Shown here one piece after another: positions 45,977-48,170 of a stretch of DNA of 64,000 nucleotides; the stretch's first letter is position 1; each line of letters opens with the position of its first letter. A program made the translations under genes and the position numbers. The notes under the pieces are model-generated. The model did no database searches, was not told the DNA's origin, and saw nothing but the letters and a program-made list of their open reading frames with translations. The stretch is taken from the IMG/VR virus record IMGVR_UViG_3300028559_000025, positions 1 through 64,000 of that record; one strand, written 5' to 3'. The stretch is from a virus.

Positions 45977-45985
45977 GGGTATACT
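45957..45985 (+). promoter_or_regulatory. Sigma70-type promoter for a leaderless gene
   Basis: TTGACA-17-TATACT, with ATG 6 nt downstream. Confidence 0.8.
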
Positions 45986-45991
45986 TAATAT

Positions 45992-46213
45992 ATGGAAGAA
46001 GAGTTTGAAGAAGTATTAAATCAAATGCAAAACAATGACTCAGACTACAAAGAGTTTGAGATTTGGTTAAATAACGGTATTGATAGAGGCTGGATTACAG
46101 AGCCTTTCTGCAATACTCATGATGGAGATCCATACATGACAGAAGAAGAAATGCAAGAGTGGTCAGATGGTGGAGATCCATGCCAAGTAGTATTTAAAAT
46201 AAAAGAATCATAA
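45992..46213 (+). CDS. Hypothetical acidic protein
   Basis: W...GI.RGW...PFCNTHDG...GGDPC. Confidence 0.65.
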   Translation: MEEEFEEVLNQMQNNDSDYKEFEIWLNNGIDRGWITEPFCNTHDGDPYMTEEEMQEWSDGGDPCQVVFKIKES

Positions 46214-47131: not shown

Positions 47132-47203
47132 TGGGGTATAGTGAAATGGCTATCACGGAACGCTGTTAACGTTCAATACTTGGATCGTAACCAGGTACCC
47201 CAG
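47132..47203 (+). tRNA. tRNA-Asn(GUU)
   Basis: Cloverleaf: acceptor TGGGGTA/TACCCCA; anticodon arm GAACG-CTGTTAA-CGTTC; T-loop ATCGTAA; CCA not encoded. Confidence 0.85.
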
Positions 47204-47207
47204 CAAT

Positions 47208-47281
47208 GCGGATATTGCATAGTGATAGTGCGTAACCTTGCCAAGGTTAATGTGCGGGTTTGATTCCCGCTATCCGCTCCA
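47208..47281 (+). tRNA. tRNA-Gly(GCC)
   Basis: Acceptor GCGGATA/TATCCGC-T-CCA; anticodon arm TAACC-TTGCCAA-GGTTA. Confidence 0.9.
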
Positions 47282-47352: not shown

Positions 47353-47769
47353 ATGGTAACAAAGTACGCTATGGATCTATTCAATGATCCTTTTTTTATT
47401 GGCTTTGGCAGGGAGCTAAGTCGCCTTAATGGTGCATATAAAACAAATTCACAGTCATATCCTCCATATGATCTTATTAAGCTAGATGAAGATACATATA
47501 GACTATCACTTGCAGTTGCAGGTTTTACAAAAGAAGATATTGATGTATCAGTAGATAATGGTACATTAATTATTAAGGGTGAGATTGTTGAAGTAACAGA
47601 TGCTGAAGTTGTTCACAAAGGTATCGCAGCTCGTAAATTTGTAAGATCATTTGCACTTGGAGAATACATGGAAGTAACAGGGGCTGATCTAAAGGATGGT
47701 ATGCTACATATTAATGTTGATCGTATCGTTCCTGAAGAAAAGAAACCCAAGACAATTAAAATCAAGTAG
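47353..47769 (+). CDS. Small heat-shock protein (Hsp20/IbpA-like)
   Basis: YPPYD...LAVAGF...HKGIAARKF.RSF.L...DGML...PKTIKI. Confidence 0.92.
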   Translation: MVTKYAMDLFNDPFFIGFGRELSRLNGAYKTNSQSYPPYDLIKLDEDTYRLSLAVAGFTKEDIDVSVDNGTLIIKGEIVEVTDAEVVHKGIAARKFVRSFALGEYMEVTGADLKDGMLHINVDRIVPEEKKPKTIKIK

Positions 47770-47780
47770 TACAATATAGA

Positions 47781-47868
47781 AGTCCCCACACAGGACCTTA
47801 GAGATGGATTAGTTACCCATTTATATATAACCTGGCCTTCGTGCCTGAATTACCTGTGTGGGGCTTTT
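47781..47868 (+). ncRNA. Candidate structured small RNA (family unknown)
   Basis: TACAAT at 47770-75; 11-bp closing stem CCCCACACAGG/CCTGTGTGGGG; internal hairpins; TTTT end. Confidence 0.6.
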
Positions 47869-47894
47869 AACATTAGGTGTATAATTATAAAACC

Positions 47895-48170
47895 ATGTCA
47901 GAAAAAGAATTGGCAGTTTATAATAAACAGCAATTCAAGATGCGCCTTAAGGCAATTAAGGAGGCAAGTGGATGTGTTGACTGTGGAGAATGTAATCATA
48001 TAGTTTTAGACTTTGATCACATTAGAGATAAAAAATATAATATTTCAAGAATGATCCACGATGGGTTTTCTTGGGCAGCAATAAAAAAAGAAATAGCAAA
48101 ATGTGAAGTAGTCTGTGCCAACTGTCATAGAATAAGAACTCATAATCGTTTGACAGAAAAAGCTTCATAG
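47895..48170 (+). CDS. Small HNH endonuclease
   Basis: CVDCG...LDFDH...KCEVVCANCHRIRT. Confidence 0.85.
   Translation: MSEKELAVYNKQQFKMRLKAIKEASGCVDCGECNHIVLDFDHIRDKKYNISRMIHDGFSWAAIKKEIAKCEVVCANCHRIRTHNRLTEKAS

Follow-up and report, generated by a model that had tools for sequence, protein, structure and literature searches.

Antisense RNAs that present a loop to their target are familiar from plasmids, as in CopA/CopT of R1, RNA I/RNA II of ColE1 and Sok/hok. Phages carry small RNAs of their own: species 1 and 2 of T4 (rnaC/rnaD) are stable RNAs without known role, longer than the element described here, and the tRNA islands of phages may help to withstand defences that cut tRNAs. To our knowledge, the tools with which phages reach ribosomes are proteins, the small RNAs described from bacteria and phages target mRNAs, and bacteria are not known to possess the proteins that partner C/D and H/ACA guide RNAs. 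Here we analyse a phage element whose unpaired segments are complementary to helix 69-70 of 23S rRNA and which may act on the host ribosome as an RNA.

The element lies in a window of 64,000 nucleotides (the whole stretch of DNA analysed), which belongs to a 76.7-kb IMG/VR record of a siphovirus-like phage with 36.6% G+C. The phage encodes a 2853-aa tape measure protein and a lysin with CHAP and PG-binding domains, and the phages with the most similar terminases (53%) are those of Streptomyces and Gordonia. The element sits in a tRNA island (five tRNAs in the window), and its parts and immediate neighbours, all on the + strand, are listed below.

47353-47769, +: hsp20 gene (Pfam HSP20, 4.9e-19), with its TAG stop codon at 47767-47769 abutting the -10 box
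47770-47775, +: putative -10 promoter hexamer TACAAT, assigned from sequence, with the start predicted at about 47782 (G)
47784-47794, +: 5' arm of stem P1, CCCCACACAGG, 11 nt, 8 bases after TACAAT
47795-47801, +: junction J1/2, ACCUUAG, unpaired and near-invariant, complement of 23S CUAAGGU (about 1925-1931 in E. coli numbering)
47803-47807, +: 5' strand of P2, GAUGG, also a complement of the helix 69 3' strand (5/5 with the CCAUC type, 4/5 with the CGGUC type)
47808-47816, +: P2 loop, AUUAGUUAC (DNA ATTAGTTAC), 9 nt
47810-47816, +: UAGUUAC within the P2 loop, invariant, complement of helix 69 GUAACUA
47817-47821, +: 3' strand of P2, CCAUU
47822-47833, +: linker J2/3, variable in sequence and length
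47834-47845, +: P3 hairpin GGC-CUUCGU-GCC, strands 47834-47836 and 47843-47845
47846-47852, +: junction J3/1, UGAAUUA, in which GAAUU is the complement of 23S AAUUC (about 1937-1941), a weaker and partly conserved third contact
47853-47863, +: 3' arm of P1, CCTGTGTGGGG (RNA CCUGUGUGGGG), perfect complement of the 5' arm
47864-47868, +: U-rich tail CUUUU, probable 3' end or terminator tail
47880-47885, +: second -10 box, TATAAT, 9 nt 5' of the ATG of the next gene
47895-48170, +: small HNH endonuclease gene, 91 aa (PHROG HNH endonuclease, 2.9e-22)

Fold, conservation and promoter-like boxes of the element

The P1 arms enclose 58 nt, and the whole element, stem to stem, spans 47784-47863. It is predicted to fold into a three-way junction with an energy of -30.1 kcal/mol (z = -3.76), matched by none of 200 shuffles, in which both ACCUUAG and UAGUUAC are unpaired. 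The P1 arm sequence occurs at just these two places in the window, and two matches are also found in 4 of 100 shuffles. Nearly all of the architecture described in the initial annotation was recovered: TACAAT directly follows the hsp20 stop codon, the 11-bp stem is perfect and runs into CTTTT, the interior of about 58 nt contains the hairpins GATGG/CCATT and GGC/GCC at the positions given for them, and the multi-way junction is the one seen in the predicted fold. The internal pseudoknot that was also suggested, between the P2 loop and TAAC or AATTA, had to be abandoned, as its partners fall in the variable linker and in variable positions of the loop.

The element does not correspond to any of the RNA classes with which it was compared. 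At the gathering threshold, Rfam 15 returned five tRNAs alone for the whole window and nothing at the element, and a permissive scan of 47650-48000 was headed by rli43 with 16.6 bits against a cut-off of 100; the Infernal search that had been proposed as a check thus finds no Rfam 15 family for the element. On the related loci Rfam reported tRNAs and one chance HEARO match, and no other family. ARAGORN and the Rfam tRNA model recovered the five true tRNAs of the window and found no tRNA or tmRNA at 47784-47863, and the element contains no ORF of 30 aa or more, both as had been stated earlier. It was likewise correct that the enclosed region is too large for the loop of a simple intrinsic terminator: the 58-nt "loop", where 3-8 nt would be expected, holds two conserved hairpins, and a terminator scan of the + strand makes no call there, although P1 may still act as a terminator. 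HEARO, the omega RNA of IscB, is about 200-300 nt long and lies beside a large HNH/RuvC protein of the IscB type, whereas here there is no RF02033 match and the adjacent HNH protein has just 91 aa. PeSL cassettes are recognized by many dispersed copies, and we found one copy in the window and one in each related locus. No ribozyme family matched the element, and none of the roles initially guessed (decoy, ribozyme, antitoxin mimic, protein-binding scaffold) gained evidence.

Relatives were collected in three sets. The first came from an IMG/VR scan with the two arms placed 50-70 nt apart, which gave at least 117 contigs; the second comprised 80 loci taken via the Hsp20 protein alone, avoiding the bias of the arm query, and searched with a covariance model derived from set one; the third was obtained by an IMG/VR scan with the interior motif. 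The resulting family has at least 173 copies with 57 distinct sequences in freshwater phage contigs of IMG/VR, always one per locus; a relative of Hsp20 is present in more than 582 contigs. Cultured phages gave no blastn match to the element, and genome contigs scanned with a 14-base interior motif contained chance matches only (at most 24 bits with the covariance model, against 106 for the element).

The homologue and covariation check proposed for the element could be run on the 57 distinct sequences, and its outcome was positive. P1 is paired in 99.5% of the cells of the alignment, and six of its 11 base pairs have changed on both sides, from C-G to U-A at four positions and from AC/GU to GU/AC at two. 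P2 is paired in 97.9% of the cells and shows one compensatory exchange from A-U to G-C. None of 500 shuffles reaches the observed counts, and the slid controls collapse. P3 is always a hairpin, but its stems and loops differ by subtype (a GCAA tetraloop type and a CCGU/ACGG type), and the J2/3 linker and P3 loop vary freely. Positions 12-34, on the other hand, are invariant or nearly so, bar three positions. Compared with the window, the nucleotide identity has a median of 85 for the RNA, 80 for the 3' end of hsp20 and 79 for the HNH gene, and the stem stays letter-identical in loci where the Hsp20 protein identity is as low as 41%. This pattern of compensation and conservation argues that the element is a real, selected RNA gene family and not a chance hairpin.

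The upstream neighbour is hsp20 in 107 of the 118 listed loci (41-100% amino acid identity), and the downstream neighbour is HNH in 99 of them (73-100%), more conserved than hsp20; 19 listed loci have the element without HNH. In relatives that lack the element, its place is taken by other terminator-like pseudoknots. Homing genes often settle beside conserved genes, and the simplest account of the linkage between the RNA and HNH is that a free-standing homing gene settled next to a very conserved gene.

A -10 hexamer lies 8 +/- 1 nt 5' of the stem (-14 to -9) in 96 non-redundant flanks, as TACAAT in 49 of them and in TATAAT-like forms in the rest. The hexamer is kept, often as a TGn-extended -10, in upstream contexts without hsp20, which include another small RNA, a peroxidase-like gene, a tRNA and others. 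If transcription from it begins with the G that lies two bases 5' of the stem, the RNA would be about 88 nt long. The tail 3' of the stem is moderately U-rich, with 4.6 T on average among its first 9 nt (96 flanks), and in 87 of the 96 flanks a second -10-like hexamer lies 14-17 nt past the stem and 6-9 nt before the next ATG. The promoter, start and 3' end are assigned from sequence and should be read as predictions.

Sequences of the commonest subtype are present in at least 15 metatranscriptome runs from freshwater, lakes and estuaries, belonging to many studies. This transcript evidence consists of assembled Logan contigs, from which neither strands nor RNA ends can be read. One such contig covers hsp20, the RNA and HNH; another, from a relative, begins in hsp20 and stops 3 nt short of the end of the stem, which hints, at most weakly, that hsp20 transcripts too may end at P1. 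The initial proposal of an independently promoted structured small RNA of no described class is upheld as far as the promoter-like box, the fold, the compensatory changes and the lack of an Rfam 15 match are concerned, and falls short in the roles that it attached to them.

Complementarity to helix 69-70 of 23S rRNA

The 23S rRNAs of three phyla, represented by one Corynebacterium, one Acidimicrobiia MAG and one Cyclobacteriaceae genome, contain GUAACUA-N8-CUAAGGU followed by AGCGAAAUUCC, where GUAACUA is the loop of helix 69 and CUAAGGU the strand after this helix. The ACCUUAG-N8-UAGUUAC of the element is the reverse complement of this arrangement, colinear and antiparallel and with equal 8-nt spacing; according to an analytic estimate, two exact 7-mers at a fixed spacing would occur in 4.4 kb of rRNA with a chance of about 1e-4. 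A third segment, GAAUU of J3/1 (GGAAU in other members), complements AAUUC/AUUCC slightly downstream, with 5 nt and not universally. In the consensus structure of mature 23S rRNA given by Rfam the three target segments are all unpaired, so that for ACCUUAG and UAGUUAC both partners are single-stranded, as in loop-presenting antisense pairs. The phage record contains no rRNA gene and the motif is found nowhere in the window outside the element; therefore, the element would act in trans rather than as a cis-antisense RNA.

How far the complementarity extends between the two 7-mers depends on the variety of helix 69. In the Corynebacterium type its stem is GGUGG/CCAUC, and the 5' strand of P2, GAUGG, complements CCAUC. 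With this type, each of the 20 conserved positions in block 12-34 has its complement in the target, and the three variable ones are those that would be bulged or mismatched; the antisense score exceeds those of all 1000 shuffles, and the duplex of -28 kcal/mol is the best site across the entire 23S and 16S rRNAs. With the CGGUC type the middle block pairs at 4/5 positions, and a local-alignment test does not stand out. The region was present in 86 of 201 sampled genomes of Actinomycetota, most of which have CGGUC, including all those of 1.3-1.7 Mb, while CCAUC was found in about 17 of the 86, mostly large genomes (the tally includes two unpublished genomes, G053 and G093, on which no claim depends). 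The sample suggests that genomes like those of Corynebacterium glutamicum and Mycobacterium smegmatis have the fully complementary CCAUC type. The extent of pairing in the middle block would hence depend on the helix 69 type of the host, for which GAUGG of the RNA predicts CCAUC.

Two lines of published work indicate that this part of 23S rRNA can be reached. MazF-mt6 and MazF-mt3 cut the helix/loop 70 strand (UU^CCU) in the 50S subunit and not in the 70S ribosome in Actinobacteria (PMC5408214), and it follows from the cutting by MazF-mt6 that the target region is reachable on free 50S subunits; the AAUUC target of GAAUU spans the MazF-mt6 site. An antisense PNA directed against helix 69 is reported to stop E. 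coli from translating and growing (Kulik 2017, cited in PMC12828698), which, as far as that citation goes, implies that helix 69 is reachable by a complementary strand.

The same signature recurs on other scaffolds. We scanned for the pattern ACCTTAG-N{6,10}-TAGTTAC and regarded matches not recognised by the covariance model of the element as unrelated scaffolds. With this pattern, 56 of 115 loci fall into multi-member clusters and the gaps peak at 8-9 nt, whereas the control, the pattern reversed without complementing, gave 117 matches in 114 clusters with a flat distribution of gap lengths. The unrelated scaffolds are complementary to 23S rRNA in the middle 8 nt too, and their departures from perfect complementarity are mostly G-U-compatible.

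One of these scaffolds is a hairpin in the 3'UTR of a head gene, present in at least 12 contigs, which lies between the double stop of the major head protein gene, a few bases upstream, and a strong terminator; counting G-U pairs, a 22-nt stretch of it is fully complementary to helix 69-70, and the family has no HNH neighbour. A family of 5'-region RNAs contains ACCUUAGGACCG...UAGUUAC together with a separate GAUUCGCUACC, the complement of GGUAGCGA. In cultured Vibrio phages (PWH3a-P1, qdvp001, R16F and others) 22 of 24 positions match, and both differences are G-U-compatible; the match lies inside an invariant block of about 105 nt with diverging flanks, which also carries UCGCUACC, and the RNA is co-oriented with the genes and, in R16F, also with two tRNAs and a NUMOD4-HNH gene. 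In PWH3a-P1 it lies between genes on the minus strand, near 80.8-80.95 kb of the record. Finally, a divergent homologue in two contigs is an RNA of about 115 nt directly after tRNA-Ile(UAU), whose 12-bp closing stem is wholly different and covarying; a U tail and a -10 box follow it as they do the element, and it retains ACCUUAG, UAUAGUUAC and, beside the closing stem, CUGGAAUAC. In all four of these cases the orientation can be read, and all are antisense to 23S rRNA. Another group of pattern matches turned out to be HEARO RNA with a chance match and was set aside. A blastn search with a 37-mer of the Corynebacterium-type helix 69-70 found no cultured actinophage, and full-text literature searches returned no phage RNAs pairing with helix 69 or 23S rRNA.

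On this sequence evidence, we put the probability that the RNA of the element pairs with the helix 69-70 segments of the host 23S rRNA at roughly 0.6. More tentatively, and with somewhat less than even expectation, we suggest that phages of several bacterial phyla, among them freshwater actinophages and marine Vibrio phages, have repeatedly evolved small RNAs or UTR hairpins that dock on helix 69-70 of the 50S subunit. A virus would thereby control, silence or shield bacterial ribosomes by RNA alone, and these would be the first natural trans-acting antisense RNAs known to be aimed at bacterial rRNA.

Possible action on the ribosome and alternative explanations

From the observed fold, conservation, promoter-like arrangement and complementarity we infer transcription, binding to rRNA and an effect on the ribosome along the following lines. 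Host RNA polymerase would transcribe the RNA of about 88 nt early, from its own -10 promoter, to an end at the U-rich tail. P1 would seal and stabilise both ends and perhaps terminate transcription, and P3 would be a structural hairpin. The P2 loop would kiss the loop of helix 69, the J1/2 strand would pair with the strand behind this helix, and GAAUU would probably add a third short contact with the helix/loop 70 strand. The helix 69-70 region is accessible only while the 50S subunit is free or immature. Helix 69 forms the intersubunit bridge B2a, and hence a 50S subunit with the RNA bound should fail to join the 30S subunit or to mature. That the element is a trans-acting antisense RNA on the universally conserved subunit-interface region of 23S rRNA, blocking either the joining of 50S to 30S or assembly, is in our judgement an evenly balanced proposition.

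The weakest step of this mechanism is the pay-off for the phage. Halting the assembly of new ribosomes, freeing subunits, feeding the turnover of rRNA and shielding from MazF-type ribotoxins may all be considered. The phage needs working ribosomes, and therefore a plain inhibitor requires an extra rationale; taken alone, the inhibitor reading has at most an even chance and perhaps a poorer one. Several points also count against the pairing as such. The contacts are short (7 + 7 + 5 nt), and helix 69 is buried in the 70S ribosome and carries modified bases. RNAcofold with the 23S fragment gives a ddG of 0, i.e. no net gain, for the CGGUC type and of -4.9 for the CCAUC type, though nested folding cannot hold P1 together with the pairing of the junction and loop.

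It is conceivable, if improbable, that the RNA protects the ribosome instead, making the strands of helix 69-70 double-stranded on free 50S subunits and so guarding them against putative host ribotoxins of abortive infection, RNases like MazF-mt6 and MazF-mt3 to which UU^CCU is a substrate only when single-stranded. GAAUU, or GGAAU in other members and in the divergent homologue, covers AAUUC/AUUCC, where both toxins cut, and they do so in 50S and not in 70S in Actinobacteria (PMC5408214). The closest cultured relatives of the terminase are actinophages, and the location of the RNA in a tRNA island would suit a counter-defence. However, the J3/1 contact has only 5 nt and is not kept by all members, the 5'-region family covers GGUAGCGA with its GAUUCGCUACC and not UUCCU, and a bound shield would itself obstruct the joining of the subunits.

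We hold it to be similarly improbable that the element serves hsp20 as a structured 3' end or terminator, or is a small RNA that binds a protein, and that its short motifs match 23S rRNA by coincidence. The GC-rich stem with its U-rich tail does stand right after the hsp20 stop, one metatranscriptome contig runs from inside hsp20 to the 3' end of the element, the relatives without the element have terminator-like pseudoknots in its place, and chance alone should produce one matching 7-mer in 4.4 kb of rRNA. Yet there are two 7-mers in the same order and spacing, at the odds of about 1e-4 estimated above, and the positions that vary are the non-complementary ones. Moreover, the -10 box is kept where the neighbour is not hsp20, and the signature is shared by independent scaffolds and not by matches to the reversed pattern.

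Still less probable, in our view, is a feature at the level of DNA, i.e. a recognition or homing site of the HNH enzyme that resembles the I-CeuI target in 23S rDNA and is not a functional RNA. The I-CeuI site does lie in the same stretch of 23S rDNA (PMC7104398, PMC2790883), the frequent and well-conserved HNH neighbour described above would fit such a site, and the related RNA of Vibrio phage R16F is near a NUMOD4-HNH gene. On the other hand, HNH is missing from 19 listed loci and from the neighbourhood of the head-gene 3'UTR family, the compensatory changes preserve pairing and not sequence, and a cleavage site leaves the promoter at a fixed distance unexplained.

The weakest candidate, that the P2 hairpin is a mimic of the 790 loop in helix 24 of 16S rRNA and would decoy a binder of this loop such as IF3 or KsgA, is very unlikely in spite of the 12/13 identity between GGAUUAGUUACCC and 16S GGAUUAGAUACCC and the 9-nt loop closed by GG/CC in both: about 10% of shuffled elements score equally against one 16S rRNA, the sole difference from 16S (A to U) is what completes the complementarity of the loop to helix 69, ACCUUAG and GAAUU are left unexplained, the other scaffolds bear no likeness to the 790 loop, and the match, covering just part of the conserved block, is weaker than the complement to helix 69.

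Comparison with described RNAs

If the pairing of the element with helix 69-70 is real, it would constitute a new layer of phage takeover, with an abundant, early-promoted RNA aimed at the most conserved intersubunit bridge. It would also provide a natural counterpart to the man-made antisense antibacterials against helix 69 and mark a site of the ribosome that is open to short RNAs. Since it occurs very commonly in lake metagenomes, the family may matter for the reprogramming by phages of the dominant small-celled freshwater bacteria, and the presence of a related RNA in cultured Vibrio phages (e.g. PWH3a-P1 on Vibrio natriegens) makes the idea testable at the bench. An RNA-based grip of a phage on the host ribosome, as suggested by these sequences, has probably not been described before.

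Several known systems share part of the layout of the element. Like the PeSL (promoter-early stem-loop) cassettes of T4-type phages, it presents the order promoter, stem-loop, promoter in a variable region, with small, mobile early genes alongside; PeSLs, however, are short recombination repeats present many times per genome, whereas the element is single-copy, with a conserved 58-nt interior and compensatory changes. With the T4 species 1 and 2 RNAs (rnaC/rnaD) of the tRNA region it has in common that a phage RNA lies in a tRNA island beside homing endonuclease genes. It also resembles small RNAs derived from 3'UTRs by an internal promoter, of the DapZ/MicL type, in having a predicted promoter that overlaps the end of the upstream coding region and a terminator that may be shared with the upstream mRNA. 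These RNAs depend on Hfq and have mRNA targets, whereas the element is found away from hsp20 as well and its seeds match rRNA.

Other systems share its predicted target or its mode of pairing. The synthetic PNA of Kulik et al. 2017 (known here through PMC12828698) is directed at the same hairpin, and differs, to the extent that it is described there, from a natural structured phage RNA that would add a second and possibly a third contact. As in the archaeal and eukaryotic C/D and H/ACA guides, unpaired strands that flank helices of the RNA itself would pair with rRNA. Unlike these guides, the element is without box motifs, the order of its strands around the helix is the reverse of that in the H/ACA pocket, and no role in modification is indicated. 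The resemblance to the plasmid antisense RNAs is seen in a small untranslated RNA with a putative promoter of its own and a terminal stem, in which a conserved loop and single strand complement the target; in both, complementarity of the loop allows pairing to begin by kissing and then to extend further. The plasmid RNAs are encoded opposite the mRNA or primer that they control, whereas the phage element would act in trans, and its predicted target is the subunit interface of 23S rRNA.

RNAs beside hsp20 and tRNA-Ile in other phages

The region downstream of hsp20 looks like a variable island of small RNAs. Among the related phage loci L243-L311, those devoid of the window's RNA carry other promoter-led structured RNAs, including larger, multi-hairpin forms, directly 3' of the hsp20 stop codon, and for none of these did Rfam contain a family. 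Elsewhere, an RNA of ~115 nt located immediately 3' of tRNA-Ile(UAU) has the architecture of the window's RNA; compared with the latter, its 12-bp closing stem is wholly different and its interior is larger, and the covariance model built from copies of the window's RNA did not detect it in either locus. A third structure, an H-type mini-pseudoknot with covariation in both helices, recurs at gene ends, and in L012-type loci it also precedes the window's type of RNA. It is built from a stem of 4-5 bp and a CUGAGCA-like loop strand, which pairs with UGCUCA located 3' of an A-rich UAUAAAC linker.

Structured RNAs in phage loci (coordinates within each locus)
L248:2917-3030; L262:955-1100; L256:2917-3080: examples of alternative RNAs directly after the hsp20 stop
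L340:11848-11994 (+); L357:2070-2218 (-): ~115-nt RNA after tRNA-Ile(UAU)
L243:2945-2990; L249:2505-2550; L251; many others: H-type mini-pseudoknot

Complements of 23S helix 69-70 in other phages

In a different phage group, the major head protein gene has a hairpin in its 3'UTR, a few bases past a double stop codon, with 22 nt complementary to 23S rRNA helix 69-70 if G-U pairs are counted; a strong terminator follows on its 3' side. The cultured Vibrio phages PWH3a-P1, qdvp001 and R16F share an intergenic block of ~105 nt, which contains a 22/24 complement to helix 69-70 as well as UCGCUACC. This block is found near an Hsp20 gene in PWH3a-P1, and in R16F it adjoins tRNA-Arg, tRNA-Met and a NUMOD4-HNH gene (the tRNA strands and names in the R16F record conflict with those from ARAGORN).

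Loci with helix 69-70 complements
L341:5281-5350; also L356, L347, L372, L380, L408, L417, L433, others: head-gene 3'UTR hairpin
L464:1112-1240 (-), PWH3a-P1 (NC_020863.1, about 80.8-80.95 kb); L465, qdvp001; L466, R16F: Vibrio phage block

A HEARO (IscB omega) RNA is present in viral contigs of 90-150 kb, and it came up only because it happens to match the search pattern (ACCTTAG-N{6,10}-TAGTTAC):
L350:2072-2281 (-); also L363, L365, L382, L388: HEARO RNA (Rfam RF02033, 83 bits)

About 20 short records filed as phages in the phage collection hold a perfect stretch of bacterial 23S rRNA (e.g. Klebsiella phage Kpn_R1, Listeria phage WIL-3 and several Escherichia and Staphylococcus "phage" contigs), and look like host rRNA contamination.

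Surroundings of the RNA in the window

Window features
45980-45994: -10 box close to ATG
47132-47281: tRNA-Asn(GUU) and tRNA-Gly(GCC), just upstream of hsp20
47880-47897: -10 box close to ATG, before the HNH gene

At both start sites the -10 box lies only 6-9 nt upstream of the ATG, with no Shine-Dalgarno sequence, a layout that suggests leaderless or near-leaderless mRNAs. At the HNH gene this layout is conserved in 87 of the 96 non-redundant related flanks. Together, the two tRNA genes, the RNA and the HNH gene resemble the islands of tRNAs, small RNAs and homing endonucleases of large phages.
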